Shown one piece after another: positions 39,157 through 53,984 of a stretch of DNA of 64,000 nt; the first letter of the stretch is position 1; the number at the start of each line of letters is the position of its first letter. This stretch comes from a bacterium (lineage in GTDB: Bacteria; SAR324; NAC60-12). A program made the translations under genes and the position numbers. The stretch spans positions 207,860 to 271,859 of the forward strand of contig CBDBHR010000025.1 of the NCBI GenBank assembly GCA_965205865.1, in the 5' to 3' direction. The notes under the pieces are model-generated. The model ran no database searches. It was not told where the DNA came from and worked only from the letters and a program-made list of their open reading frames with translations.

Positions 39157-40212
39157 ATGAAAGCAGCAGTGACCACAGGAAAGTTACGTGAGATTACCCT
39201 GCAGGAAGTTCCCATACCCGAACTGCGACCGGGAAAAATATTGTTGAAGACCGCTTATTGTTCGGTGTGCGGTACCGATTTGGAATACCTGGACAATACC
39301 CTGGCCTACCGCAAAGGGGGGGCATTGCACGCCGGGGCTATTCTGGGACACGAGTATTCTGCCGTGGTCGCGGAGGTCGACGAGGGAGTAACGGGTTTTG
39401 AGGTAGGGGACCGGGTCACCGGCAGTGGGTTGTGGGACTATTGTGGCGAATGTTACTTTTGCCGTCGGGGTATGGTGCGGATGTGTTTGGGCAAAGAGCA
39501 TGAGCGCTCAGTATACACTCAGGTCCCTGAAGGGGGCTATGGCAACCGCAACGGCGCGATGGCAGAGTATATGCTGCGTTCGCCAAGTCAATTGATGAAG
39601 TTGCCGGACGAGGTGTCCGGTGTCGAAGGCAGCTTGATGGAACCCCTTATGGTAGCCACGGGGTCAGTCCAGGCAGCGGAGCTCACCATCGGAGACACAG
39701 TAGTGGTGATCGGCACCGGAAAAATTGGCCTGGGAGTGATAGGCGTTGCCAAAGCCTCCGGCGCATCGAGAGTGATTGGCGTGGACGTTCATGCAAACCG
39801 CTTGCGGACGGCCTTGCGGATGGGGGCTGACGTAGTGCTGAATCCGCAGAAAATCGATCTCGTCCCAGAGGTGGTGCGGATGACCGGCGCTGGCCCGGAT
39901 GTGGTGATTATATGCGTGCGTGATAGCCAGGTGTTGGACACTGCGGTGGACATGGTACGGCGTGGAGGTAAAATTGTCATTGTAGGGCAGATTCCGCCCA
40001 CCGAGGTCAATCCGGGTATGTGGCTTGTCAAGAAGTTGCGGATTGAGGCGGTGCTAGGGGGACCCCCATGGATTATTCCTCTGAATCTCGTTGCCAGTGG
40101 CCGAGTCGACCTCACCCCGATGATCTCCGAGGTGATTCCTCTGGCTGAGGTGCAGCGGGCATTTGATGATCTGTGGAGCGGAAAAAATGTTGTATCGATG
40201 CTGAAACCCTGA
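39157..40212 (+). CDS. Zinc-dependent alcohol dehydrogenase (threonine/sorbitol dehydrogenase-like)
   Basis: CGTD, GHE, CGECYFCRRG...C structural Zn site and GTGKIG. Confidence 0.92.
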   Translation: MKAAVTTGKLREITLQEVPIPELRPGKILLKTAYCSVCGTDLEYLDNTLAYRKGGALHAGAILGHEYSAVVAEVDEGVTGFEVGDRVTGSGLWDYCGECYFCRRGMVRMCLGKEHERSVYTQVPEGGYGNRNGAMAEYMLRSPSQLMKLPDEVSGVEGSLMEPLMVATGSVQAAELTIGDTVVVIGTGKIGLGVIGVAKASGASRVIGVDVHANRLRTALRMGADVVLNPQKIDLVPEVVRMTGAGPDVVIICVRDSQVLDTAVDMVRRGGKIVIVGQIPPTEVNPGMWLVKKLRIEAVLGGPPWIIPLNLVASGRVDLTPMISEVIPLAEVQRAFDDLWSGKNVVSMLKP

Positions 40213-40403
40213 ATGATGATAAATGCGCTTATGAAAATTCACCTTTCAACTCTCTCGTCTCCAATTCTATCCTGCCGGATGCATTTGCCGATTTTTCAGT
40301 AAAGCTTCACGTTTAATAAACTCACTGAACTGATCGACAAAACATCCGCTTGGCACCGGTTTCCTGGCGAAACCGCTGCCAGGATTTCCTCCTTTTTCGT
40401 ACT

Positions 40404-40905
40404 CTCTTTGTCATTATTTGCTCTGCCCAAATTTCCCTTCGATGGGGATTCGATCGAGTTCATCCCGGCAGACAAGACGCCGGTTTCTCAGAATCTGTTG
40501 ATGGTTTTCGGAAGTCGTTTCGAGTGGACGTCCGAGCAGATGGCGGCCCAGCCATGTTCTCTTGGCTTTGCGCCAGGCGCGGTTGGCTTTGGTACGTTAA
40601 CCTGAGTTCGACATAAATCTTCAATAATATGAGTATCCTCGTGTAAATGTCATCCTCGCGTAAATGTCATCCTCGCGAAAGCGGGGATCCAGACTTCAGT
40701 CTGGCTGCATATCTCCGGATTCCTGCTCCCTGCTTTCGCAGGGACAAGCTTCGCAGGAATGACAAGGTTTCTCTAAGATATGAAGATTCCATAACATATT
40801 GAATTTATTAAATTCTTATCTCGAAACCAGGTTACGTTAAATCTTGTCGACGTACGCCGATTGAAGATAATGAGCGTGGCGTTTGCGAATTGATTGCCTC
40901 AAACT
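40404..40905 (-). pseudogene. IS5-family transposase C-terminal remnant interrupted by a MITE
   Basis: With the MITE removed, the minus strand reads HYLQSAYVDKI*RTKANRAW...LGRP...DELDRIPIEGKFGQSK, matching the ADKIYRTRxNR...IEGKFGQGK pattern. Confidence 0.7.
40600..40832. mobile_element. MITE (IS982-like ends), copy 2
   Basis: ACCTGAGTTCGACATAA ... TTATCTCGAAACCAGGT, flanked by direct repeat TACGTTA; homologous to 18705-18921. Confidence 0.88.
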
Positions 40906-41086
40906 CCTGAGGGTTCCCGACCGATCGATTAAACGATAACGCCGGATTGTGGATCGAACGTTCGCCAACGTATTTATTCCCCAATAGCTCCTTTCGCTTT
41001 ATCCCTATCATAAAGGAGCGAATCTCCCTGATTCATGGATTTTTTATTTTTTTTTGCCAATCTCGCATTTATTTTACACCAGGGGT

Positions 41087-41115
41087 TTGACATTGCGTAG
41101 TAGTAGTGCTAGAAT
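41087..41115 (+). promoter_or_regulatory. Near-consensus sigma70 promoter upstream of SBP-1
   Basis: TTGACA-17 bp-TAGAAT; a degenerate paralogous copy lies near 50883-50909. Confidence 0.7.
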
Positions 41116-41147
41116 CATGCTTTCACTAAGTTGTTTTGGTGAAAGAC

Positions 41148-41259
41148 GAGGGTTGCCGCTCGATCGATTGAACAATATCGTGGGAGGGTTGCCGCTCGAT
41201 CGATTGAACAATATCGTGGGAGGGTTGCCGCTCGATCGATTGAACAATATCGTGGGAGG
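41148..41259. repeat. Three exact tandem copies of a 36-bp hairpin unit
   Basis: GAGGGTTGCCGCTCGATCGATTGAACAATATCGTGG x3 plus a final GAGG. Related units at 40909, 49699 and 50941. Confidence 0.95.
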
Positions 41260-41411
41260 ACTTGAAAACGATTGATCTTCCCTGGGAATCTTTTTTAACG
41301 ATATTTAACTAAACGGGTTTTTCAGAGACCTGAATAGTTACACTTCACGTTAACAAATCATATAAGGAGGTAGTTATGAAACGAAAATTATCTTTATCAA
41401 GCGAGGTTCCT

Positions 41412-43345
41412 ATGTATCTTAAGAAATTTCTGACCCTCTTGGTAGGGTTGATCGTGGCAGACGTCATGTCTGCCGCAAAAATTCGATTCGCCACGGAGTG
41501 GGTGAATCGATCTCGTCACTCTCAATTAAAAGAGGTTATTATGTATATGATAAAGAAACTTGTCTCCCCCGTCGTGGGGCTAACCCCGGCAGGCGCCTGG
41601 TCTGCTGCAAAAACGCAATCCTTTTTGCTCACCCTAACCCTGATGGTGGTAGCCATCTGGGTCAGCCCGGCCGTGGCGGCTGAGAAAATGATGGTCACAG
41701 ACCCCAGCACCGGCAAGGTGGTGACTGCGCCGGAGTATGGCGGGACCATCACCTTTGCCCGGACTACGACGGGTGAGCATCCGGATGCCTGGTACATTGG
41801 TGGTTTTGCCTACCATTACATCACTTTGGTTAATGAGAAGCTAGGCATCGGGGACTGGGGTATAGATAGGGACGTATTTGACTGGAGGACCTCTGCCCAA
41901 CCTCTATCTTTCTTTAAAGGCCACCTGGCTGAAAGCTGGGAAACGCCCGATCCTACAACGATCATCTTCCATATCCGCCAGGGCGTTCACTGGCACGACA
42001 AAGCCCCCTTGAATGGCAGAGCCTTGACGGCCCAGGATATCGAGTTCAACATCATCGCCTCTTGGGTATCGGCAGCGGCTTCAGCGAAGCCTCGCCGCAC
42101 GCCCGTTATGCGCTGACCAAGATGGCATCCGTGACAGCCACCGACCAAGGGACGGTTGTTTTCAAGCTGAAGGAGATAGACCTTAACGGTCTGGCTAAAA
42201 TCATCGACGGCTGGATTTCTTGTATCTACCCTCCGGAGGTCATCAAGCAACACGGCGACTATAAGGATTGGCGGAACGTGGTCGGCACCGGACCCTATGA
42301 GCTGACGGACGTTACCGAAGGCAGCTCGATAACCTGGACCAGGAATCCCGAGTACTGGGGCACCGACGAAAAATACCCACAGAACCGCTTGCCCTATGCT
42401 GACCAGATCAAAACCTTGATCCTGCCAGATCCGGCAACACGTCTGGCGACACTGCGCTCGGGTCGGATTGATCTGCTGGGGTCTGCCGGCGATACTCAAT
42501 TACGGTCGCTCGACCAGATAGAGAACCTTCGGAAGACCAACCCCGAATTCGAGCTGTGGCCGTTTAAGTCTCGGAACGACAACAGTTTTACTTACAATAA
42601 TGTGAACAACCCGCCCTTTAATGACATCCGGGTGCGCCAGGCGATGCAGATGGCTTTGGATCGAGAGACGATCGCGAACACCTACTTCAGGGGGTTTGCC
42701 GATCCGACCCCGCAGGGAATGATAGCCAGTGAGGTAAAAGGGATTGGCACGCCCTTTGATGAGTGGCCCGAAGCGCTCAAGAAAACCAATAGGTATGACC
42801 CGGAAGGGGCGAAGAAGCTTCTGGCTGAGGCGGGCTATCCCGATGGCTTCAAGGCCACCCTGGACTACCTCGACCGGTTCGATGCGAGTTATGCAGAACT
42901 GATCGCGGCCTACTGGCGTGCGATTGGCGTGGAGGTCCGGATAGAAATTGTGGATGTTGCGCGACACGTATCGCTCACTAAAAATAATAGTTCCGACGGA
43001 ATAGTTATGGGTTCAACTGCCCAAAGGGTTAATGCGATGGGTGCACTGAATTGGTTCGCTCTCACCGAGAACCCCACCGCTCAGAACGATCCGAAATTTA
43101 TCGCTCTGGTGGAGGCCGCCTCCGCTGCTACCACCCTCGAGGAGCAGGAGAGGATCCTCAAAGAGGCAGTCATGTACCATGCCGAACAGCACTGGCAGGT
43201 AGAGGGTCCCGAAGCCCCACAGTTCAATGCAACCCAGCCGTGGGTCAAAGGTTACAACGGCGAAATCAACTTAGGAAACGGGAACCATGCCGTCTTAGCC
43301 CGCCTTTGGATCGACCAGGATCTGAAGAAAGAAATGGGGTATTAG
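41412..43345 (+). pseudogene. Family 5 ABC solute-binding protein (SBP-1), 1-bp frameshift at 42050/42051
   Basis: APEYGG, LAESWE, GTGPY, DIRVRQAMQMA and QPWVKGYNGE. The expected EFN-YHRLLG is broken as TTCAAC^ATCATCGC. Confidence 0.88.
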
Positions 43346-43445
43346 GGGTTTTCACCCTGACTGACCTCAGGGAAAAGGGGGCTGGCAGACTTGAACTTCC
43401 CGGCTCCCTTACTCATTGAATCATGAGAGGAGGAGATTCTGTCCT

Positions 43446-43547
43446 AATAGACTTCCAGAAAATTATCTTGGCAGTAGGTGGGCGTCCCGCCCATCTGGAG
43501 CGGCGGGACGCTGCCTCTACCCCAAATTATTTTTCTGGAATACTATA
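43446..43547. repeat. GTAG-type REP doublet inside a short inverted-repeat element
   Basis: GTAGGTGGGCGTCCCGCC...GGCGGGACGCTGCCTCTAC (43474-43520) flanked by TTCCAGAAAA/TTTTCTGGAA. Confidence 0.65.
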
Positions 43548-43857
43548 AGTACAAGGACAACCTCTATCTAGGGCTCAAGACATTCCGGAAGCAATGGAGA
43601 CGGCAATGGCCCTCCCCTCTTCCAGGGTTCGTCGATGTCGTACAGAATCACACTGAGCATATCCTCAACGAGCATAATCCGGAGCCCAAAACATCCGGTG
43701 ACTATAGGTTCCACTGATTTAAGAACCTCTTCCGAGGTCTATTTCGATACTCATACAGGTCGTAAAGGGGTCAGGCCTTTGATTAATTGATTTAATTGTG
43801 TTTTGTTAAATTCTAAGGTTAGAATAGTTACAGACTCGAGAGCAACCGAGGGGAAAA

Positions 43858-43965
43858 ATGGCAAGAAAACGAAGAGTTCATTATCCTGGAGCGGTCTATC
43901 ATGTGGTGCTTCGTGGCAATGGGGGGCAGGGCATTTTTTTGATGATGATGATCGATTTTATTTTG
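43858..43965 (+). pseudogene. REP-associated tyrosine transposase (RAYT) N-terminal fragment
   Basis: MARKRRVHYPGAVYHVVLRGNGGQGIF, then (frameshifted) DDDDRFYF, then truncated. Confidence 0.8.
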
Positions 43966-44149
43966 GAGAATCGCCAAGGGGAAAGAGAGGAAACTCTCCA
44001 AAATACTCCGCTTGAGCGAAGCGAAAGTCGAGCCTCAACGAGAGAGCTTGCTCCGGGATAGTTTATTTGAAGAATGAAACGTCAAATGAAATAATCAAAG
44101 TCACCGTAAAGAACTGACTTATAGTGGTTTCCAGCCACCTTTCGTCATT

Positions 44150-44520
44150 CCTCCGGTACAGATCCGGACCTGCGCTGCTAACGCATCCGGCTCCTGCTTC
44201 GAGTCAGACGCTCAAACGTTGCCGTTTGGCGCACCCTGCTTAAACCGCTTTCTGATTTTACGGCCTCTGAGTTCCGAACACAGGAGGACAAGCAGAATTC
44301 CTCTCAGCCAAGTCCCTTTGCTCCACAGGCTCCGTTGATTTCCTTTGCATTATTACTCTCTACAAATGATCTCATTGTTCGCCGCTTCATCGCTACTACG
44401 AACTTGTCCGACTTCCTGAAGACGTAGATATCGGGGTTATTTATTAATTTTCCCGATCCGACTACCAATAGAATGTTGACAGTCGTCTTCAGGATCTCCC
44501 AGGTTCCGATGGTCTTGGAG
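44150..44520 (-). ncRNA. Group II intron remnant lacking the RT ORF and most of domain I
   Basis: Domain V-like GAGCCGGATGCG-TTAGCAG-CGCAGGTCCGGATC (44161-44193), with upstream intron-like motifs GGAACCTGGGAGATCC, GGAAGTCGGAC..GTAGTAGCGATGAAGC and GGAGCAAAGGG. Confidence 0.75.
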
Positions 44521-44955
44521 AGCCGGGAAGAATTGGCAGAAAAAATACCGCAATGGAAAGCCACTCTGGAGACGTTGGATTCCCCGGAGTCCGAAAAGAG
44601 GCATTTGAGAGAATTGTTAACCTATGCTATTGTAGAGAAGTTTTCTAAACTGACGAGAGAGGAGATAGAGAAGATGCTCAAACTGACCCCATTAGACGAA
44701 ACCGTCGCCGGAAAAGAACTGATCCAAATCGGAAAATCACAAGGTTTGCAAGAAGGTCGAGAAGAAGCTCTGGAAAAAGGTCGAAAAAAAGGTCTGTAAA
44801 AAGGTCGAGAAGAAGGGATACTGATTGGTCAAATCCACATGACTCAAAACCTTCTCAAACAAGAGAGGACTCCTCAAGAAGAGTTGATTCGAAAAAGGAA
44901 AGAAGAGTTACAAAGCCTGCTTCAACAGCTTCAATCTCAACTCAATCGCTCCTAA
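44520..44955 (+). pseudogene. Rpn/DUF2887-like protein C-terminal fragment with internal TAA
   Basis: KLTREEIEKML, LDETVAGKEL and EGREE/KGREEG repeats continuing past the stop at 44797-44799; 5' part absent. Confidence 0.7.
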
Positions 44956-45384
44956 AAAGTGAGCCATCCTTCGACAAAAGGAAGAACGATTTTCAATCTT
45001 GATCAAATGGTTCTCCTTTCAAAATGGTCACGGGATGAAGGCGCATCACGGAGTATTTGACCTCCTCCCTCGGGTGCTCCAGGAAAGCAAAGAGGGTTTC
45101 CCTGGTGGAAATGGTTTCCTCATCCGCTGCTTTTTCTTCCTTGGTAAGGCGCTGAGTTCAATTTGGTGAGGGGATGCCTTTTTGGAGAGAATCGTTGATT
45201 TTGAGAAAATTTGTCTATTCTGTCGAGTTTTTCTGCGGTGCCAATCGCAAAGTTCAGGCTTGTGAGGGGGAAGGCAAACAAGTCGCGGCCTTCATCAGGG
45301 CCTCTTGTTTTTCACAAGAGGGCCAACGATCAAAATAGGCCTTGACCCCTTCTGAGGTCTCAAAGAGGGTTAAAGAATTTCTGC

Positions 45385-45513
45385 TTGTCTTTCGTTTTCT
45401 TTTGTGATAGTTCTCGAGAAATCGTCTTTACCTGAAGGTTTTTCAAAATGGCTGATTGTCTTTCGTTTTCTTTTGTGATAGTTCTTGAGAAATCGTCTTT
45501 GCCTGAAGGTTTT
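45385..45513. repeat. ~58-bp imperfect direct repeat x2
   Basis: TTGTCTTTCGTTTTCTTTTGTGATAGTTCTyGAGAAATCGTCTTTrCCTGAAGGTTTT at 45385 and 45456. Confidence 0.85.
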
Positions 45514-45655
45514 ATTTCAATTTCGCTAATATTAATTTAGCCGAAAGTCATGTAAAACATCATATCATCACCAGAGGATTTTTAGAAACTGTCAACTGGG
45601 AATTGAAAAGTGCCGGATATTCTTAAAAAAACATATTGACTTACTTTTCTAGATA

Positions 45656-47512
45656 GACCCTAGCCGAAAAGGGTTTCGAAAATAGTAAATATAACCGATT
45701 GGATTCTATTTGATTCTCTATTTGATTCAATATGACGAGAAAACGATTTATTTTTGTTTTTTATTCGCCCACAGCACAGTTTTTATAGGGAAAAAATCTT
45801 TTTTGGACATACTTTCCTCGCCCCTGCTCATATTTCACACTCCCCCATTGAATATTCAGGCCGCTTGTTTGAGTTGTCTTTTTTTCAACTCAATCATTTT
45901 GCAAAAATTATAGGTTAATGCTTTTTCCAGCAACTCTGCCCGAACGTTTTCAATCCCTCTGCGCATAACTTGTCCGAAATGGAAACGATGCTTAAGATGA
46001 AACATCAACGACTCTGCAGCAGATCTTCCATTTCGTGATTCCAAATAGATTTCACTTTCCCATTCTTCAATCGGGGTCATCTTTTTTCCCTTTGCCCCAC
46101 TAATACTAAAAACCTTAACGCCTTTGCCCATCCACTTTTCTCTGATCGCCTGATTGGCATATCCATCATCAAGGCTCACTTCAGAGGGAATGGTGATGGT
46201 GCATCGCAAATGTTCAACAAGGGCAGGGTCGAGTTGCCCTGAATCAGCAGCATTGCCCTCCGGAGTAATTAACACGGAAATAAAACCATTTCCGCTCCTT
46301 CCTAATTGAGGCTTATATCCGATAAGCGCTTCTCGATCTCCCTTTTGAATATAAGCCGAACTCTGATCGGAAAGACTCAATACTTTCTCAGTAGAAGGAA
46401 CCTTCTTTTCTTCAAAAACTCTTTGATGACAGTAGATGATTACCCGTTGCAAATTAGAAATATCTTCATTCATCATTTCAATGAGGCGAATCAAACGCGT
46501 TTTCCGAGAAGGGGGGAGAAGAGCTTTTTGGGCACGGATATCCACCTTTGCCATTTCTTTTAAAAATTTCCCATGAGCGCTTTGAGCTTTCTTCAATAGG
46601 GTTTTGTAATGTTTTTTTCGCTTCGTTTTACTGTCCTTTTTACCTGTCTCAAAAGCAATCATCTTAGAGAGCTTATTCATCTCCTTGATGAGGAAATCAA
46701 AATTTCTTTCACTGATCTCAGCGATTCCAAATGTATCAAGGGAACGCCCTCGATGGTAGCTTCGCTCCACGAGACGAGTCAATATCGACGAATCAGTAGG
46801 CCAAGCTGTATTTCCTTTTACAGAGGTGCTATCCAGTTTTAAAATATCAAAATCGTCCAACTCTTCATTGAGAACCATTCGAATTTGAGCATCGAAAATA
46901 AACTGTCTGGTCTCGTTGCTGACAGCATTGACATTATCAAGGATTGTACTCGCTCCCGGCATTTTCAATCCACGGTTGAGCAGAAGCAGATGCAGTGTGA
47001 TTGACTCTGAAAGAAATATTTGGGCCGTTTGGGATTTGATACTTCCTAAGTATCCCCGAATCATCATAAAAAGGTAGACTAAAAAAGCCGACATCCGAGG
47101 ACACCCTATTTCCAGCCTCAGTTCTTCCGGCTTCAATTCCTCATCTTCTACGGGAAGATGAGGAAGCCATGGATTCCGGGCTTCCTGCCATCGTTTATCC
47201 TCTAAACGCTCTTTCTTTTTATTTCTTGCGTATTTCTCCAAATCCTGTTCAATTTTGTCCAATATCTCCGGCTCTCGCTCAGACAATTGATCAAGTTCTG
47301 ATAAGAAATTTTCAAATTCTGTATCAGGAGCGCTTAAAAAAAGATGTTTTTCTGCTCGAATGAATGGTTTCATTTTGGGTGCCATAATTCTTAATATTGA
47401 AGTTATTCACAGTTATTTCAATGAATTATGGCACTTTTTAACCTCAAGATATAATTCTAAAAAATACCTTTTTAAAGATATAATTCTAAAAAATACCTTT
47501 TCGGCTAGGACT
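45656..47512 (-). mobile_element. IS5/ISNCY-like insertion sequence, copy A
   Basis: IR GACCCTAGCCGAAAAGG / CCTTTTCGGCTAGGA; flanks TAGATA and CAAATA do not match; 27-bp duplication at 47446-47501. Confidence 0.9.
45856..47385 (-). CDS. DDE transposase (IS5/ISNCY-like), 509 aa
   Basis: DST...WPTD, SLDDGY and RSAAESLMFHLK; differs from the 56310 copy at only a few residues. Confidence 0.9.
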   Translation of the reverse strand: MAPKMKPFIRAEKHLFLSAPDTEFENFLSELDQLSEREPEILDKIEQDLEKYARNKKKERLEDKRWQEARNPWLPHLPVEDEELKPEELRLEIGCPRMSAFLVYLFMMIRGYLGSIKSQTAQIFLSESITLHLLLLNRGLKMPGASTILDNVNAVSNETRQFIFDAQIRMVLNEELDDFDILKLDSTSVKGNTAWPTDSSILTRLVERSYHRGRSLDTFGIAEISERNFDFLIKEMNKLSKMIAFETGKKDSKTKRKKHYKTLLKKAQSAHGKFLKEMAKVDIRAQKALLPPSRKTRLIRLIEMMNEDISNLQRVIIYCHQRVFEEKKVPSTEKVLSLSDQSSAYIQKGDREALIGYKPQLGRSGNGFISVLITPEGNAADSGQLDPALVEHLRCTITIPSEVSLDDGYANQAIREKWMGKGVKVFSISGAKGKKMTPIEEWESEIYLESRNGRSAAESLMFHLKHRFHFGQVMRRGIENVRAELLEKALTYNFCKMIELKKRQLKQAA

Positions 47513-47558
47513 CAAATAGTTAACACCAGAATCAACATTTTAAGAGATCACCATTACC

Positions 47559-48941
47559 ATGAAAAACAAAGGTAGCGCAAGATCGGCAAGAACGACAGCA
47601 AAAAACATCCATATCAGCCAGGGAGGCAGAGACCTGACCGCGCAAGCAGGCTTGATTCCGGTTGTCAAATTTTTTCACAAAGAAGGGATTGTTTCAAAGA
47701 CAGAGCAGACCGTAGATCATCGGCGTGGCGCCACGGGTCTTTATGACGCGGTGGACATGGTCATTTTGTCGGTGGTCGGCATTGTTGGTGGCGCCCGTTC
47801 GATTCGTTCGATTGTGACAGTTTGGAACGACCGTGTTTTGAGTCGTGTGGCCGGTTGGCTGAGGATTCCGGATGAAACCACATTCGGCCGGATACTGCGT
47901 ACTTTCACACAGAAAAACATCAATGAGATGGAGAGCTTGAACCATCGGATTCGAGCCGGTATCTGGCGTAAGGCGCTTCGAAGTGGGACAAGCATCGTTG
48001 GGGTGTTACACTGTCTTGTGATTGACGTGGACTCCACTGTGAAAACGGCCTACGGCAAGCAGCAAGGAGTGTCTGTCGGATATAATCCCCACAAACGCGG
48101 TGCAGCTTCGTATCATCCTCTGCTGGCATTTTGCGCAGAGACAAAGGAGATTCTTCAGGGTTGGCTTCGTGATGGGAGTGCCTATACCAGCAATGGAGTC
48201 GTTGAATTCATGCGGCAACTTCTCGCTCACCTTCCAAATCGGACTCGCACTCTGTTTCGTGGAGACAGTGGTTTTTTTGTGGGGGATTTGCTGGATTTCC
48301 TCGAAGAACGAGGCCATGGCTATCTGATCAAGGTCAAACTCAAGGGGCTTGTCTCGTTGTTGGAAACCCAAAAATGGCAAAAAGTGAAGGGGCAGCCCGC
48401 TTGGGAAGGGTGTGAGTTTTCCCACCAATGTGAAACTTGGAGGAGGTCAAGAAAATTCATGGCCGTACGCAGGGAGAAAGAGGAGGAACTCAAAGGGATG
48501 GCCACCCTCTTTGAGATGAAGGAGTACGATTATTTTTGTTATGTTCTCACTGACGCGCTCACTCCCTGGCAGGCTCACAAAGAGTATGGCCAAAGGGCGG
48601 TCGCTGAGACATGGATTGAGGAAGCAAAAAATCAAACTGCGCTGGCTCAGATTAAAACCGACGATTTTTGGGCCAACAGTGCCTTGTTCCAATGCGCGAT
48701 ACTCGCTTACAACACGCTGCGCTGGATGGCCCTTTGTAGTGGTAACGCAATACTGCGCCGTTGGGAACCGGCCACCATGCGCACCTATCTTGTCCGAATG
48801 GCAGGAAAATGGACGAGTGGCGCTCGTCAACAAAAACTGAGAGTTCCGGAAAGAACACTTTACAATGCTCAATGGGATGCATGGGTCGCTGTTGGAGAGA
48901 CCTGGATCCTTTGTTTCACTCCAGTGGATACATTTTGCTGA
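47559..48941 (+). CDS. IS1380 family transposase
   Basis: IDVDSTV, YHPLLAF, LRDGSAYT, FRGDSGFF and QRAVAETWIEEAK; putative right IR GCAGGATTTAGG ending at 49158. Confidence 0.92.
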   Translation: MKNKGSARSARTTAKNIHISQGGRDLTAQAGLIPVVKFFHKEGIVSKTEQTVDHRRGATGLYDAVDMVILSVVGIVGGARSIRSIVTVWNDRVLSRVAGWLRIPDETTFGRILRTFTQKNINEMESLNHRIRAGIWRKALRSGTSIVGVLHCLVIDVDSTVKTAYGKQQGVSVGYNPHKRGAASYHPLLAFCAETKEILQGWLRDGSAYTSNGVVEFMRQLLAHLPNRTRTLFRGDSGFFVGDLLDFLEERGHGYLIKVKLKGLVSLLETQKWQKVKGQPAWEGCEFSHQCETWRRSRKFMAVRREKEEELKGMATLFEMKEYDYFCYVLTDALTPWQAHKEYGQRAVAETWIEEAKNQTALAQIKTDDFWANSALFQCAILAYNTLRWMALCSGNAILRRWEPATMRTYLVRMAGKWTSGARQQKLRVPERTLYNAQWDAWVAVGETWILCFTPVDTFC

Positions 48942-49314
48942 GATGTAGATTCCCAAATCCAGGGAGAAGTACGTCTTGAATCTTGTGCCCGCGAAAGCGG
49001 GTATCAGATCATCACAAAATATGACGATCTAATGGAGGGCGGAAAAACCTTTATGAGCAAGGACTGATGGAAATTCAACTCTCAAATCCTTTTTTTTAAA
49101 AAAACCTCTCAAAGAGTGGGGGGAAACTCAATCAAAATATTCAATTGCAGGATTTAGGTCATACTCAGTATGGGTGAGAATACAAATAATAAACACTTTT
49201 TGAGAATTATAATTAATGCGGGTTATGAGCCTATAATTATTTCCTCCAATATTGAAGACGGTTCGTCTTCCTACTTGATCAGCATGGGGATATAATGAAC
49301 GGATTTCTTCGATA

Positions 49315-50570
49315 GTAACTATTCAGGTATCTTCAGAGAACCCATCGATTTAAGCACGGATTTTGCACTGCGCAAAATACAGAAAGGATTTTATGCTCTC
49401 GAAAGTTCAAAAATATATTGATTCTATTTCATCGACTCTCCAGCTCGAGGCTCTTCAAGTTCAAGAAGCCTGTCTACTCTCTGAAAAAGAAGGTGAGCAA
49501 TGGAAGCAAGAGCGCTTAGAACTCCTCAAACGTATTGAAGTTCTCGAGACAGAAAATAAGCGTATTGAAGCTCTCGAAGTGGAAATTAAGCAACTTCGGG
49601 ATCGGCTGGCTCTCAACAGCCAAAACTCGAGCAAGCCACCATCCTGCGATGCAAGTCGCAAGAGCAAAAGTTCAGGTAAAAGCAGGGGTCGCTCTCGCGG
49701 AGGGTTCCCACACGATCGATTAAACAATATCGTGGGAGGTCAACCCGGTCATCAAGGCCTTCATTTGGCTTTCAGTGAATCGCCAGATCGTATGGAATTG
49801 TCAACACCTGTGAAGCCTGTGGAGAAGATTTATCCAAGGTGACGGTTGAGGCCACGCTTAAACGTCAGGTGTTTGATCTCCCCTCTCTGCAATGAGAGGT
49901 TACCGAACACCAAGTGGAACAAAAAATTTGTCCCTGCTGCCAGCATCTGAATCACTCGACGTTTCCGGCAGGGGTGTCAGCACCGACTCAATATGGTGCG
50001 AGAATCAAAGGCTTAGCCGTTTACCTGCACCCCTATCAATTCCTCCCCTTTGAGCGATGCCGTCAATGCTTTGAAGATCTTTTCGGCCAGTCTCCCAGCG
50101 TAACCACGATTCATGAAAGCCTCCGGCAAGCAGCCCATTTGCTGCATCCCTTGCAACAACAAGTGGCTCAGGCTTTGATTCAATCCCCGCTCGTTCATTT
50201 TGATGAAACCTCACTGTTTGAAAACAAACAACGTCGCTGGCTTCACTCAGCCTCGAGCAAGCAGATGACTTTTTATTTTATCCATGACAAACGCGGCAAA
50301 GCGGGAATGAAGGAAAGCTTGTTATTCATGCATGACTTTCAAGTTCCTTTTGACAACAACCAAGCCGAGAGAGATATTCGCATGGTTAAATTGAAACAGA
50401 AAATCTCAGGTGGCTTGCGAACTGCTGAAGGATCGCAGGCTTTTTGTACCATCCGAGGAGCTATTTCCACTAGCAGAAAACAGGGGAAATCCATGCTCGA
50501 GTTGCTCACTCGGGCTTTGCATCCCCCGGATCAAGTCCGGGACAGGCTTCACCTGCTCCTCCTTGTTACT
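49315..50570 (+). pseudogene. Degenerate IS66 family element (single TnpC type) with frameshifts and an internal deletion
   Basis: Left end GTAACTATTCAGG; NSQNSSKPPS, GQPGH, VHFDET and VPFDNNQAERDIRMVKLKQKISG. Confidence 0.88.
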
Positions 50571-50619
50571 GAAACTCTCCTTTTTTTTAAACGTTCGGCC
50601 TCCTGCGTGGCTAAAAGTA

Positions 50620-50780
50620 TTCATAGCAAACATAGCATCGTCAATGCGATTTTGTATGTCCTGAAAACGGGTTGTCAGTGGAGCATGCTTGCCCATGATT
50701 TACCTCCCTGGCAAAGCGTTTACGATCATTATCGCCGTTGGAAAAAACGCTGGACTGTGGAGCGAACATTCGCTTTTTGG
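50620..50780 (+). pseudogene. Internally deleted IS5-family (DUF4096) transposase fragment
   Basis: IVNAILYVLKTGCQWSMLAHDLPPWQSVYDHYRRW fused directly to the C-terminal KRWTVERTFA. Confidence 0.8.
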
Positions 50781-51083
50781 CTCATGCCGAAGACTGAACG
50801 GCTTCTGACTGTCCCCGGATTTGAGCAGATTTATTGATTTTTTATTTTTTTGCGAATCCCGCATTTATTTTGCCTTGGGGGGTTGATATTGGGTTGTTGT
50901 ACTAGGATCATGCCATCTCTGAGTTGTTTTGGTGAAAGAAAGGGTTCCCGATCGATTGAACAATATCGTGAGAGGAATTGAAAACGATTGATCATCCTTG
51001 GGAATCTTTTTTAATGATATTTAACTAAACAGGTTTTTCAGTGACCTGAATAGTTTCACTCAATTATGTAAGAAGAGGTTCCA

Positions 51084-53012
51084 ATGTATCTTAAGAAATT
51101 TCTGGCCCGCTTCGTTGGGCTGACCGTGGCAGACGTCGTGTCTGCTGCGAAAATCGGATTCGCTCCCTGGCGGGTGAATCGTTCTTGTCACCCTCAATTA
51201 AAAGAGGTTACTATGGGTATCGTAAAGAAACTTGTTGCCTCCATCACGGGGCTGAACCCGGCAGGCGCCTGGTCTGCTGCAAAAACGCAATCCTTGTTGC
51301 TCACCCTTATCCTGATGGTGGCCGCTCTCGGGGTCGGTTCAGCTGTCGGGGCTGACAAAATGATGGTCAAAGATCCGTCTACTGGAAAAATGGTGACCGC
51401 GCCGGAATACGGCGGGAGCCTGACCTTCACTAAGAGGCAGTGGCCAGCGAATACGGACACTTTGGCCGGTGGCAGGTGGGCGTCCCAGTTGGTCTTTGCC
51501 GTGCTGGATAAGCCGGCTCTCGCGGACTGGGGAATCAATAGAGACGAGTTTTCATTGAATTTGCCCTGGCCAACCATCGATTTCCTAAAAGGGTCACTGG
51601 TGGAACGCTGGGAACAAACGGACGACCTCACCATCATCTTCCACATTCGCGAGGGCGTGCGCTGGCATAACAAGGCGCCGATGAACGGTCGAGAATTTAC
51701 TGCGGATGATATGGTATTCAACTTTCACCGTATGCTGGGTCTGGGCAGCGGCTTCACCGAACCAAGCCCCCAGCTGACGGCTCAACTTGCTCCGATCAAA
51801 GTCGAATCCATAACGGCTATAGACAACACGGTTGTCTTTAAACTGAGGGAGCCGAACATTGGGGCGCTGCAGGGTCTCGTCGACGACGAAACCGCATATA
51901 TGTATCCCCCCGAGGTCATCAAGCAGCACGGCGACGCCACCGATTGGAAGGTCTTGGTTGGCACCGGACCTTTTGAGCTGACTGACGTGGTCGAGGAAAG
52001 CTCGGTAACCTGGACCAGGAATCCCAACTACTGGGGCTTCGACGAAAAATACCCGGAGAACCGCTTACCCTATGTTGACGAGCTAAGAGCTCTGCATATG
52101 CCAGAAGCAGCAACGTATTTGTCGGCACTACGCACGGGTCAAGTTGATACTGGATATAAGTTAACTAGTATCGACCAGGTAGATAGTCTTCAGCGGACCA
52201 ACCCCGAAATCCAGATATATATGCAGTACACTCGGTCGAATGATACGTGGGGTTTGAACGCTCAAGAAGAGCCCTTTGACGACATCAGGGTACGCAAAGC
52301 GATGCAGATGGCGCTGGACCTCGATACAGCTAACGCCACCTTCTTTAAGGGTCTGGCAGAAATGAGGCCTTATGGGGTTACCCGGTTGCCGGGTCATCAC
52401 GTTCCATTTGAGGAGTGGCCCGAAGAGGTCAAGAAAGGCTTTACATACGACCCGGAAGGTGCAGAGGCGTTGCTTGATGAAGCCGGGTATCCTCGCGGCT
52501 CGGATGGCATTAGATTCAAGACCGTGTTGAGCCACTACGCCGCGCGCAATTTGGGCTATACGGAACTAGCCGCTGGATTCTGGCGTGACATTGGCGTTGA
52601 CGTAGAGATTGAGATACAGGCGACCGGTGCCGAAGTTGTCGCTGCGAGAACAGATAGGAACTTCAAAATGGCCTCTGCCGAAGGGGGCCTCCTCAACGCC
52701 TATCCAGCCCGCTTTTGGTCGGGAAACATACACAACACCGCGAACGCAAAAGACCCGTGGTATGACTCCGCGTATGAAGCCATCTCAGAGGCTAAATCAC
52801 GCGCGGAGTACGAGGCAATGGTTCGAGAGATGGATATGTATAGTATAGAGCAATTCTGGCATATATGGGGCGGCATGGCCCCGGAGATTGTGCCGGTGCA
52901 GCCGTGGGTCATCGGGTATAACGGTGAACTCAATCTGGGAAGCGGTCAATATTGGCTCCAGTATTCCCGCATGTGGATTGACTCAGCGCTGAAGCAAGAA
53001 ATGGGGCAGTAG
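51084..53012 (+). CDS. Family 5 ABC solute-binding protein (SBP-2), intact; alternative start at 51213
   Basis: Same motifs as SBP-1 with an uninterrupted frame. Confidence 0.93.
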   Translation: MYLKKFLARFVGLTVADVVSAAKIGFAPWRVNRSCHPQLKEVTMGIVKKLVASITGLNPAGAWSAAKTQSLLLTLILMVAALGVGSAVGADKMMVKDPSTGKMVTAPEYGGSLTFTKRQWPANTDTLAGGRWASQLVFAVLDKPALADWGINRDEFSLNLPWPTIDFLKGSLVERWEQTDDLTIIFHIREGVRWHNKAPMNGREFTADDMVFNFHRMLGLGSGFTEPSPQLTAQLAPIKVESITAIDNTVVFKLREPNIGALQGLVDDETAYMYPPEVIKQHGDATDWKVLVGTGPFELTDVVEESSVTWTRNPNYWGFDEKYPENRLPYVDELRALHMPEAATYLSALRTGQVDTGYKLTSIDQVDSLQRTNPEIQIYMQYTRSNDTWGLNAQEEPFDDIRVRKAMQMALDLDTANATFFKGLAEMRPYGVTRLPGHHVPFEEWPEEVKKGFTYDPEGAEALLDEAGYPRGSDGIRFKTVLSHYAARNLGYTELAAGFWRDIGVDVEIEIQATGAEVVAARTDRNFKMASAEGGLLNAYPARFWSGNIHNTANAKDPWYDSAYEAISEAKSRAEYEAMVREMDMYSIEQFWHIWGGMAPEIVPVQPWVIGYNGELNLGSGQYWLQYSRMWIDSALKQEMGQ

Positions 53013-53021
53013 GGGCTTTTC

Positions 53022-53984
53022 ATGAGAGCCTATCTCATCCGGCGGATATTGCTGATCATCCCCACCCTGTTTCTTTTGACCATCCTGGTCTTTCTCTCGG
53101 TGCGTTTCCTCCCCGGGGATGTCGTAGACGCAATGCTGGCTCGGCTGATGAATGTATCAACGGTGGGGACGGTTGACCGAGAAGCGCTTGAGCGTCAGCT
53201 GGGACTGGATGTGCCTGGCTACGTCCAGTATGCACGCTGGTTGGCCGGTATTTTCCGGCACGGCAGCCTTGGTGAATCTCTGATGGGTCGAGGGGCGGTG
53301 GAAGAGCAGATAATCAGTAGACTCCCAGTCACCCTTGAGCTTGGCCTCCTGGCCATCGTCATCGGGTTGCTGATCGCCCTGCCGGTGGGTATCTATTCGG
53401 CGATTCGACAGGATACGGCCGCCGACTACGCGGGGCGCTCCATCGCCATCCTCGGCCTGGCCACGCCGAACTTCTGGCTGGGAATCATGGTCATGGTCTA
53501 TCCGGCCATCTGGTGGGGCTGGTCGCCCTCGATGGAGGTGATTCCTTTCTCCGAAGACCCGCTGGGCAATCTCGGCATGTTCTTCATTCCCAGCCTGATC
53601 CTGGGGACAGCCTCGTCTGCCGCCATCATGCGGCTGACGCGCACCATGATGCTGGAGGTGCTGCGGCAGGACTATATCCGCACCGCCTGGTCCAAGGGGC
53701 TCCGGGAGCGGGTCGTCATAATCCGGCACACCATCAAAAATGCCCTCATCCCGATCGTGTCCCTGATCGGCCTGCAGTTGCCGATCCTGGTTGGCGGCTC
53801 CGTGATCATGGAAAACATCTTCAACCTGCCGGGGTTAGGTCGTCTCTTGCTGAGTGCCCTCGAAGACCGGGACTACCCGGTGGTCTCCGGAGTCAACCTG
53901 TTTTTCGCCACCGTGGTGTTGGGGATCAATCTCCTCATCGATCTGCTTTATGCGTATTTGGACCCGAGGGTGCGTTATGAGTGA
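53022..53984 (+). CDS. ABC permease, DppB/OppB type
   Basis: YLIRR, PGD, EAA-loop QDYIRTAWSKGL and DLLYAYLDPR. Confidence 0.95.
   Translation: MRAYLIRRILLIIPTLFLLTILVFLSVRFLPGDVVDAMLARLMNVSTVGTVDREALERQLGLDVPGYVQYARWLAGIFRHGSLGESLMGRGAVEEQIISRLPVTLELGLLAIVIGLLIALPVGIYSAIRQDTAADYAGRSIAILGLATPNFWLGIMVMVYPAIWWGWSPSMEVIPFSEDPLGNLGMFFIPSLILGTASSAAIMRLTRTMMLEVLRQDYIRTAWSKGLRERVVIIRHTIKNALIPIVSLIGLQLPILVGGSVIMENIFNLPGLGRLLLSALEDRDYPVVSGVNLFFATVVLGINLLIDLLYAYLDPRVRYE

Follow-up and report, generated by a model that had tools for sequence, protein, structure and literature searches.

A genus-restricted and probably mobile 36-bp palindromic repeat with exact empty sites in a SAR324 bacterium

A 36-bp repeat, found as a tandem array at positions 41148-41259 of a 64,000-nt stretch of a SAR324 genome (the window; C25:207860-271859 of the 4.74-Mb, 30-contig genome G000), is very probably a mobile mini-element resembling the repetitive extragenic palindromes (REPs). 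The central evidence is an exact 36-nt presence/absence at six sites, seen either between paralogues or between G000 and G001, the sister species and sole other genome of the genus compared, whose orthologous DNA is ~75-82% identical to that of G000; three of the six, in the transposase gene tnpC, in recC and in a 5'-nucleotidase gene, are polarised as insertions. Six such seamless empty/filled pairs fix the inserted block to the nucleotide (36 nt), and the spread of REP-like sequences to new places is otherwise poorly documented. The unit, with consensus AGGGTTCCCRCNCGATCGATTGAACAATAYCGTGGGAGG, is restricted to one genus, and its placement as a short imperfect palindrome of the kind represented by REPs and Rickettsia palindromic elements (RPEs), together with the explanation of its spread given below, is held here with slightly more confidence than doubt.

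Within the window, the 20-nt core CGATCGATTRAACAATATCG matches six times at <=3 mismatches, always on the + strand (40922, 41161, 41197, 41233, 49713 and 50949), and not once in 100 dinucleotide-preserving shuffles. A first-pass annotation made from the window's letters had described three exact tandem copies, a shortened copy at 50941-50975, a partial copy at 40909 and a clean insertion in an IS66 gene, all of which are borne out: Tandem Repeats Finder (TRF) reports a perfect array with period 36, 3.1 copies, 100% matches and 0 indels; the shortened copy is a 32-nt form; the partial copy is a degenerate unit scoring 19.4 bits; and the insertion is a 36-bp block with GGAGG on both sides that keeps the reading frame (coordinates in Table 1). 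The block in tnpC encodes GGFPHDRLNNIV ahead of GGQPGH, the intact frame reading ...GRSRGGFPHDRLNNIVGGQPGH..., and the GFPHDRLNNIVG-type residues that it contributes fall between DUF6444 and zf-IS66, two domains positioned from an intact copy. A CRISPR array was considered and ruled out, as the 36-bp repeats run head to tail without spacers.

Presence and absence of the unit at paralogous and orthologous sites

Among 18 N-termini of tnpC, six carry GGFPHDRLN(N/Y)IV, all in decayed copies, and precisely these 12 residues are missing from the other 12, of which eight are intact copies of G000 and four come from G001; a seventh filled copy was found by nhmmer. The residues are thus not native to the IS66 homologues, and the tnpC block is one ancestral insertion, placed in the linker between DUF6444 and zf-IS66. 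Between the two species, G000 holds the unit and G001 an exact 36-nt gap at four loci: C28:440753, whose empty form tGGAGGcttgaagagaaATG serves the downstream gene as ribosome-binding site; the intergenic site C30:698423, with empty site GGTAGGAGGATTG; recC; and the 5'-nucleotidase gene. The recC copy is an insertion in the G000 lineage, because G001 and the outgroup G004 both have the 12-residue gap, and in the 5'-nucleotidase the corresponding gap is found in G001, G005 and G004. The reverse case is provided by pheT, in which the unit lies in the B5 domain of the G001 gene and G000 has the exact 36-nt gap. These six sites answer the comparison with empty orthologous positions that the first-pass annotation had suggested. 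A 36-nt difference in copy number was also found at C27:107213, which has two units in G000 and one in G001, with GGGAGG of the unit 7 nt before the start codon in both species.

Copies common to both species are those in the tricorn protease gene, in recB, in a gene for an SNF2-like helicase (two units), at C25:94554 and at C27:107213. Against more distant relatives, the tricorn protease shows an exact 12-residue gap in the four outgroup genera G004, G008, G009 and G010, and RecB is a net 12 residues longer than that of G004. Two other copies are less clear: a transporter gene of the major facilitator superfamily has a composite 63-nt extra segment relative to G001 that is also absent from G004, and in the linker of lipoamide dehydrogenase (E3, Lpd) the unit is absent from five relatives, the linker being too variable for an exact gap length. 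One further copy sits in a phage-integrase gene. The orthologous comparison was unreadable at four loci: at C23:155879 the match stops at the unit, at C28:445863 and C30:33123 the flanks are unalignable, and C30:1133185 lies in another repeat family.

Copies inside genes

At the ten loci internal to open reading frames (ORFs) the unit is always in the sense orientation and always in frame, with all three reading frames in use, and the preservation of reading frames proposed in the first pass therefore holds throughout. Because 36 nt equals 12 codons, each copy adds ~12 residues, which are of an EGSHPIDQ..WEE type in six genes, GGFPHDRLNNIV in tnpC and of an RVPxRSI type in three. The host ORFs are real genes as judged by Pfam, at least ten in number and including recB, recC, the SNF2-like helicase gene and pheT, and the insertions appear to lie in linkers or loops. 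Such 12-residue gains in proteins that are essential or act in repair (RecB, RecC, PheT, tricorn protease and, in its linker, E3 (Lpd)) parallel the published and unexplained enrichment of intragenic REPs in repair genes.

The EGSHPID-type reading shared by six ORF copies could in principle reflect a native conserved peptide motif (EGSHPIDQ..WEE or GGFPHDRLNNIV) rather than inserted DNA. The same DNA is, however, read in three frames in different genes, exactly 12 residues are absent from orthologues or paralogues of tnpC, recC, the tricorn protease and the 5'-nucleotidase, and most copies are non-coding. A native motif is thus extremely improbable, and we regard it as ruled out by the three-frame usage and the empty orthologues.

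The strand preference deserves separate mention. Within 1075 long ORFs, GGAGG itself is in the sense orientation in 2887 of 4649 occurrences. The antisense unit is free of stops in every frame, the consensus having a stop in one sense frame. The sense bias of the unit exceeds what target availability or stop codons alone would give, since 0.62^10 is ~0.008 and the antisense strand is fully open. Among solitary units, 11 of 20 are on the G-rich strand, local GC skew being weak, noisy and uninformative on the replication strand.

Insertion site and array growth

A (G)GAGG-like pentamer immediately precedes the block on its 5' side, and since the block's own last letters are GGAGG, an occupied site again offers GGAGG. 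Empty sites are exactly GGAGG in the three non-ORF or paralogue cases, and GAGG stands immediately left of GTTCCC in five of six filled alleles. At C27:107213, C28:440753, C30:33123 and C29:865241, GGAGG lies 6-12 nt before a start codon, and the terminal GGAGG of the unit serves as the Shine-Dalgarno sequence where copies lie in ribosome-binding sites. Landing on a Shine-Dalgarno sequence and regenerating it would be an unusual route to tolerance for selfish DNA at gene starts, and the unit may in this way place a hairpin directly before ribosome-binding sites. The mobile element targeting GGAGG that the first-pass annotation had envisaged is recognisable in the exact 36-nt blocks with a (G)GAGG flank at unrelated sites, but the empty sites in ORFs are not exactly GGAGG and most copies ride an insertion sequence (IS). 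Its corollary, that a regenerated target lets arrays grow, is right about the 3' GGAGG, which is regenerated at C28:440753, but arrays need no repeated re-insertion, and local duplication fits.

In seven long-form arrays of 2-4 units the mean pairwise difference was 1.22 within arrays vs 4.3 between the same arrays and 4.9 across all arrays, a within-array value reached by 0 of 5000 permutations, and each three- and four-unit array carries its own private variant. Arrays grew in place, as indicated by the private variants that their units share, and growth by slippage between flanking repeats, or by local re-insertion, fits these patterns. In G001, none of the 65 core matches was seen to have a second core at a spacing of 36 nt. 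Among the Logan contigs listed from public runs none spans the array, contigs being broken at repeats and copy-number variants hence unreadable.

Census and distribution

An nhmmer search of G000, using a profile built from the core matches, returned 186 matches at E <=10, of which 158 units of >=14 bits in 133 arrays form the census used here. Most arrays (107 of the 133; 90 single, 12 double, 3 triple and 2 quadruple) lie in a conserved cassette, described below and recognised by two variants of its downstream motif, seven represent the tnpC insertion (all single), and 19 'other' arrays (18 single, 1 double) are by eye in part truncated cassettes and for the rest solitary copies. The nhmmer profile is biased to cassette copies; a sequence-only covariance model, R1, was built from 16 units that are mostly solitary, and gave 163 matches in G000 and 97 in G001. 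R1 exposed solitary copies that the first profile had missed, among them C25:77861 and C29:865241, the latter with two units followed by GGAGGAAGTGATG. The unit is therefore abundant well beyond the window, which answers the genome search that the first-pass annotation had proposed.

The unit is restricted to one genus. Cassette DNA was detected in two of 41 genomes searched, G000 and G001, both of this genus, and R1 gave one marginal match in each of the two other genomes to which it was applied (E 0.35-0.48). A 26-nt degenerate pattern run across 185,579 species genomes matched only the G001 record (twice) and one Desulfosporosinus contig, the latter a core-only match, and two metagenome pattern scans for the unit returned 0 matches each. 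For G001, 47 unit matches in 42 loci were fetched from the core matches; 43 are cassettes and the other four are cassette variants or chance.

Three solitary units, C30:1133185, C24:173997 and C29:79000, share identical wider flanks (..aatcatattttcagcagtgtttgtg[unit]gatttcaaaa..) and on that account belong to another unit-carrying repeat family.

Carriage by an IS66-family element

Comparing the flanks of all core matches revealed that nearly every unit copy shares one conserved ~250-nt context, the cassette. Along its 5' part, a T-run and then GCGAATCCCGCATTTATTTT precede a promoter-like TTGACA-17-TAnnAT, which is followed by a hairpin CACTAAGTTGTTTTAGTG (41120-41145 in the window); its 3' part continues with GAGAGG, one to four units, a GGAGG...CCTCC hairpin, CCGGGAATC, a T-run (41291-41296) and ~45 nt leading to ...CCTGAATAGTTAC. 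This terminal 14-mer is the reverse complement of GTAACTATTCAGGT, which is found just 5' of every IS66-type transposase gene, and the 14-nt inverted repeat is present at IS left ends, at cassette ends and in ~130-bp MITEs (miniature transposable elements with inverted repeats). Perfect 8-bp target duplications surround tnpC together with 1-3 cassettes in four of 12 candidates examined (Table 1), the other eight being without, and because these duplications enclose both tnpC and cassettes, the cassette is internal to the element. The carrier belongs to the IS66 family, as evidenced by DDE_Tnp_IS66 and zf-IS66 domains, terminal inverted repeats and the 8-bp duplication; an intact 505-aa transposase from G001 matches PF03050 DDE_Tnp_IS66 (161.6 bits), PF13005 zf-IS66 and PF20042 DUF6444.

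Classification by motif counted 63 right ends of the cassette type, 33 left ends and 24 ends belonging to ~130-bp MITEs, and gave 17 left-right pairs, spaced 420-3645 bp, and 46 solo right ends. With 107 of 133 arrays in cassettes, most of the copy number of the unit is owed to hitch-hiking on the IS and not to transposition of its own. Both stretches that the first-pass annotation took for the 5' leaders of solute-binding protein (SBP) genes, SBP-1 and SBP-2, are in fact right ends of this element. The former 'SBP-1 leader' is a solo cassette, over which genome BLAST coverage climbs at ~41025 from 11 copies to 41-136 and drops back at 41350 to 4, and no left inverted repeat was found near it; the former 'SBP-2 leader' is the right end of a decayed element, with a cassette at that end and a broken and internally deleted tnpC whose fragments match Pfam DUF6444 and DDE_Tnp_IS66. 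The promoter at 41087-41115 is a consensus match, and shuffles of the region yield a mean of 1.2 matches as good. For annotation this means that the 'leaders' of many SBP genes in G000 are right ends of the IS66-family element that carry a strong promoter match facing outward, and the expression of a very large transporter family may for this reason depend on IS-borne cassettes.

Cassettes without a unit exist. The one at C30:1220935, within the unit-bearing family, reads GAGAGG followed directly by GCGTGAAAACGA..., and four other unit-less cassettes form a sub-family that is also without the CCGGGAATC partner. These sequences are consistent with the unit having inserted into the GGAGG arm of an ancestral cassette's terminal hairpin.

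Several observations concern the carrier itself. MITEs of ~130 bp with the IS66-family 14-nt repeat were found at C25:222367-222510, C29:3995-4138 and ~10 more places, the one at C29:3995/4138 being flanked by the 8-bp direct repeat GCTCAATC. Copies of the IS66-family element lie inside the cassettes of other copies at C29:145135 and C30:1117529, one of them within the final cassette module and the other in the CACTAAGTTGTTT hairpin loop, which suggests nested insertion or a preference of the element for its own cassette. Between tnpC and the cassette, all IS66-family copies inspected hold a fragment that looks like the N-terminal part of an IS4/IS5 transposase (DUF4096), including window positions 50500-50837, where it is fused to the broken tnpC frame, and the G001 loci L020, L022 and L024, where it follows tnpC.

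Predicted structure of the unit and the cassette

The unit is an imperfect palindrome in which TCCCRC faces GYGGGA, GAT faces ATC and ATT faces AAT. Across 67 distinct long-form units the stem is paired in 85% of cells vs 37-53% with slid partners; one TCCCRC/GYGGGA pair occurs as A-U in 21 units, G-C in 8 and G-U in 35, and G001 carries a compensated ATGGAACCAT variant of ATTGAACAAT. In the RNAalifold consensus of the cassette, GGGTTCCCG of the unit is predicted to pair with CGGGAATC just before the T-run, enclosing the unit hairpin and the GGAGG..CCTCC hairpin, and this pairing is found in 97.6% of cells vs 31-65% with slid partners. A terminator-like fold of the cassette is plausible on this prediction.

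These structures raise the question of whether the unit is mainly a functional module under selection, acting as a terminator/attenuator or small-RNA-like structure in the cassette and as a hairpin-plus-Shine-Dalgarno tuner of translation at gene starts, with other copies recruited. Such a role would account for the GGGTTCCCG/CGGGAATC pairing before the T-run and for the 188-nt window leader, which folds at -62 kcal/mol (z -2.92) below a strong promoter match, as well as for the four solitary copies with GGAGG shortly before a start codon and the conservation of the C27:107213 copy in both species. In an RNA library labelled sponge metagenome, a 64-nt contig also matches the array junction at 64/64 positions, although such contigs do not show transcription. 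Nearly all cassette pairs are, however, invariant or changed on one side, so that covariation gives no test of the structure; a simple terminator scan of 40900-41450 found none, and Rfam 15 found no family in window positions 40000-52000, the only match being NEAT1_2 at 22.7 bits vs a gathering score of 60 (E 0.34). Ten copies inside unrelated ORFs and in three frames make a regulatory role for those copies unlikely, and among equivalent cassettes the copy number varies from 1 to 4, with unit-less cassettes besides. We therefore consider a mainly functional module improbable.

A sub-family of unit-less cassettes (C30:333314, 347286 and 347517 in reverse-complement coordinates; C24:101191) has AAAATA in place of CGGGAATC before the T-run; by this sub-family, GGGTTCCCG and its predicted pairing partner occur together.

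Origin of new copies

At the right end of the IS66-family element, one unit copy became a module of the promoter-bearing cassette, and about four fifths of the arrays are now carried by this element, its deletion derivatives and its solo ends. New solitary copies may arise by strand-specific single-strand cut-and-join, with cleavage 3' of GGAGG at both unit ends, by a HUH/Y1-type enzyme supplied in trans, as IS200/IS605 elements and REPs are handled. Cut-and-join of this kind would give footprint-free empty sites without true target duplication, and arrays would subsequently grow by slippage between flanking GGAGG repeats. Mobility of the unit as such is the firm part of this proposal. Whether new copies are made by an enzyme in trans or by template switching is a close call, in which we place the enzyme just on the doubtful side. 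The fully specified form, a minimal 36-nt transposable element, autonomous in form but not in function, that has one small palindrome, shares its 3' end with its target, the Shine-Dalgarno pentamer GGAGG, and is moved as single-stranded DNA by a HUH-type enzyme in trans, is a tentative proposal, possible though fairly doubtful. If true, the element would land on ribosome-binding sites without destroying them, build arrays by inserting beside itself and enter genes as a sense, stop-free cassette of 12 codons; it would be among the smallest mobile DNAs with mapped target and empty sites, and would amount to a natural 12-residue insertional mutagenesis of RecB, RecC, PheT and the tricorn protease.

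IS200/IS605-type HUH/Y1 transposition is a strand-specific, single-strand process that depends on a small palindrome; elements go in 3' of a particular sequence of 4-5 nt, need not duplicate the target and leave seamless empty sites. The six exact indels and the uniform sense orientation are compatible with it; the indels, with their GGAGG or purine-rich empty sites, are equally compatible with a 5-bp duplication or with microhomology events; because the unit ends in GGAGG, these three alternatives, including insertion 3' of GGAGG without duplication, are indistinguishable by sequence. The unit differs from IS200/IS605 elements in that it has one weak hairpin and not two subterminal ones, in that its target is the pentamer of its own 3' end and in the absence of a linked enzyme.

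Several results weigh against the mobile-element explanation and its enzymatic form. Only three of the six sites are polarised, and the other three could be precise deletions. None of six solitary copies examined has a donor identical to it left in the genome, and there is no sign of current activity; four of the six differ from their nearest cassette units at 3-7 of 40 positions, and the C30:1133185 copy differs at 1 from two units. In the three ORF cases the empty alleles, after ~20% divergence, read GAAAGG, CGAAG and GAGATA, which are purine-rich. Both junctions lie in the same 4-5-nt repeat, which is equally the signature of microhomology-mediated templated insertion or deletion. The hairpin claimed in the first pass is conserved as a pairing across units, but its energy is no better than that of shuffles (single-unit DNA fold -2.2 to -6.0 kcal/mol; z 0.64 to -1.77) and RNAalifold on 106 distinct units alone gives no consensus structure. 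Solitary copies number a few dozen vs thousands of GGAGG sites, the list of them being a lower bound with 112 R1 matches outside it.

The search for a mobiliser also counts against an enzymatic origin. Known HUH substrates rely on hairpins, and the first-pass annotation had pointed to HUH/RAYT (REP-associated tyrosine transposase) remnants nearby. No such remnant was recovered: of the 15 PF01797 (Y1/HUH) matches in G000 none is on the window's contig, the nearest unit lies 1,744 nt from one of them, most are >5 kb away, and two of the contigs that hold them are without any unit. The association with a transposase that the first pass had thought worth looking for is accordingly missing from all 15 Y1/HUH loci. 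The 330-aa Y1 proteins combine a RAYT-like domain scoring 70.8 bits, below the NCBIfam REP-transposase cut-off of 80, with a DnaA C-terminal domain, and their genes are flanked by 29-nt terminal inverted repeats of their own that contain GGGGTCAG. Other Y1 proteins of G000 that are candidate enzymes include an IS200-like one of 153 aa, at C3:80664-81122, and those of 278 and 328 aa.

As an observation in its own right, five near-identical genes for these 330-aa RAYT-like Y1/DnaA-C proteins lie within 24 kb at C29:722065-745972, and the one examined is flanked by the 29-nt repeats (TAAATGGGGTCAGGC...). They resemble the 'TIRYT/TIRtron' class of Di Nocera et al. 2013 (PMC3733652).

Template switching would dispense with mobility machinery altogether. 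The unit would then be a passenger of the IS66-family element that multiplies by slippage, and solitary and intragenic copies would stem from microhomology-mediated events in which a nascent strand ending in GGAGG anneals to the GAGG before any of the ~130 arrays, copies 36 nt to the next GGAGG and returns. Junctions that all fall in the same GGAGG/GAGG repeat agree with this, as do the private variants of arrays, which slippage predicts, the weak hairpin, the rarity of solitary events relative to GGAGG sites, the lack of a transposase associated with the unit and the location of 107 of 133 arrays in IS cassettes. Against it, >15 unlinked sites drew on one 36-nt donor family, in both species and over a long time, whereas random switching should copy many GGAGG-bounded segments. 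The tnpC copies have the long 36-nt form, yet the cassette of the window's own IS copy has the 32-nt form, and the nearest cis donor is for this reason not the source of the tnpC unit. Neither the sense orientation of all ten intragenic copies nor the conservation of the unit consensus between species whose orthologous DNA has diverged so far is expected from template switching, and we judge it unlikely.

Relationship to known repeat families

REPs are 20-40-bp palindromes tagged by GTAG or CGTC and often arranged as inverted dimers; RAYTs cleave single-stranded REP DNA at the GTAG motif, and intragenic REPs occur in recBCD, uvr and tRNA-synthetase genes, probably in linkers or loops, according to Di Nocera et al. 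2013 (PMC3733652). The present unit is similar in its length of 36 nt, its imperfect palindrome, its abundance (158 units in 133 arrays) and its lineage specificity, and its hosts recB, recC, the SNF2-like helicase gene and pheT match the kinds of genes that host REPs. It differs from them in several respects. GTAG and CGTC each occur in 1 of 158 units and the consensus has neither; GACG occurs in 21 of 158, where by our own reading it overlaps the downstream cassette flank. Pairs of neighbours within 150 nt comprise 27 on the same strand vs 0 on opposite strands, so that inverted dimers are missing, no Y1 gene is flanked by the unit, and the unit stem is weak. Exact empty sites and a GGAGG-type flank are documented for the unit, and neither is met in the accessible part of the REP account (PMC3733652).

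RPEs, as described in the MITE review PMC10969869, are ~150 bp long and lie in frame in unrelated housekeeping genes, the encoded peptide being compatible with function. The unit shares with them its palindromic nature and its in-frame location in ten unrelated ORFs. It is shorter, 36 bp vs ~150 bp, and while RPEs are said to encode a conserved peptide in that review (PMC10969869), the unit uses all three frames; the distinction from RPEs is drawn from this description. The host, moreover, is not a Rickettsia, and the unit was found in none of the relatives searched outside the genus.

The cassette as a whole invites a different comparison. Pneumococcal BOX elements are modular and built as boxA-boxB(n)-boxC. 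At the cassette level there is a likeness in the composite intergenic repeat beside genes, the short central module in 1-4 direct copies and the predicted RNA structure; this likeness is one of architecture, and the cassette differs in forming an IS66-family right end, which comes with an inverted repeat and 8-bp duplications, and in having a module that also occurs alone and inside genes. The unit is not a MITE of that element either: the ends of its 31-nt core (GTTCCCAC.. / ..ATCGTG) are not inverted copies of each other or of GTAACTATTCAGGT, and the true MITEs of the IS66-family element are the separate ~130-bp elements.

A further comparison is with the small dispersed repeats (SDRs) of Nostocaceae, which reportedly are <40 nt long, have been proposed to be mobile and use a specific short insertion site. 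The unit resembles these as a very small repeat with a short specific insertion site and differs in phylum, sequence and target, which is GGAGG for the unit. HIP1 may be the insertion site for SDR5 of Nostocaceae, as stated in PMC5861425. Nothing relevant on repeats that target Shine-Dalgarno sequences was found in the limited literature collection searched. We regard the unit as new in being a genus-restricted 36-bp REP/RPE-like mini-element with nucleotide-exact empty sites and GGAGG-type flanks, intragenic REPs in recBCD having already been published.

Features of the window and neighbouring genes

Table 1. Positions of the units, the IS66-family element and adjoining genes in the window, and of IS66-family elements with target duplications elsewhere in G000
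Feature	Position	Strand	Evidence or remark
Degenerate solitary unit, outside any cassette	40908..40947	+	nhmmer 19.4 bits, E 0.0029, model positions 1-25; core with 2 mismatches
Solo right-end cassette of IS66-family element (former 'SBP-1 leader')	41030..41341	+	Genome BLAST coverage, conserved flanks
Sigma-70-like promoter TTGACA-17-TAGAAT, extended -10 TG	41087..41115	+	11/12 positions; consensus match only
Tandem array, three identical 36-bp units with private variant GTTGCCGCT	41148..41259	+	TRF; nhmmer 50.7-51.7 bits per unit
Right terminal inverted repeat, IS66-family (GTAACTATTCAGGT on - strand)	41328..41341	-	Exact match to C25:249187-249200
SBP-1, family-5 solute-binding protein gene, 3' of solo cassette	41376..43345	+	Two overlapping ORFs, 41376-42116 and 42062-43345; SBP_bac_5 on both
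Decayed IS66-family element, 1743 bp	49315..51057	+	Left repeat 49315-49328, right repeat 51044-51057
36-bp unit in frame within tnpC	49704..49739	+	GGAGG at 49699-49703, repeated at 49735-49739
Single short-form (32-nt) unit in cassette of decayed IS	50940..50976	+	nhmmer 44.6 bits
SBP-2, 642-aa family-5 solute-binding protein gene, directly 3' of IS right end	51084..53012	+	Pfam SBP_bac_5, E 2.3e-60
IS66-family element	C25:128939-130900		8-bp duplication GGTATTTT
IS66-family element	C30:935130-937095		8-bp duplication CTCAATTT
IS66-family element	C24:98538-101085		8-bp duplication GATTTTTT
IS66-family element	C30:80812-84456		8-bp duplication AAATTGCT

The two overlapping ORFs of SBP-1 probably reflect a frameshifted pseudogene or a sequencing error. 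The SBP and ABC permease genes (window positions 41400-43350, 51100-52550 and 53020-53500) match 30-100 other genomic places at the DNA level and belong to a transporter family that is very large and has expanded recently; in many of its members an IS66 right-end cassette stands immediately 5' of the gene. In many SBP genes a repeated module with the hairpin GGCAGACGTCATGTCTGCC stands between the IS end and the signal peptide (41400-41480 and 51090-51200 in the window); it translates as ..LVGL.VADVVSAAK.. and may be non-coding DNA wrongly taken into the SBP ORFs.

Just 5' of the solo cassette, positions 40600-40825 hold a ~225-bp dispersed repeat with ~65-73 genomic BLAST matches. Two DDE_Tnp_1-type transposase genes, at 45856-47385 (-, 509 aa) and 47559-48941 (+, 460 aa), each lie in a ~35-copy repeat, and the stretch between SBP-1 and SBP-2 is a pile-up of insertion sequences.

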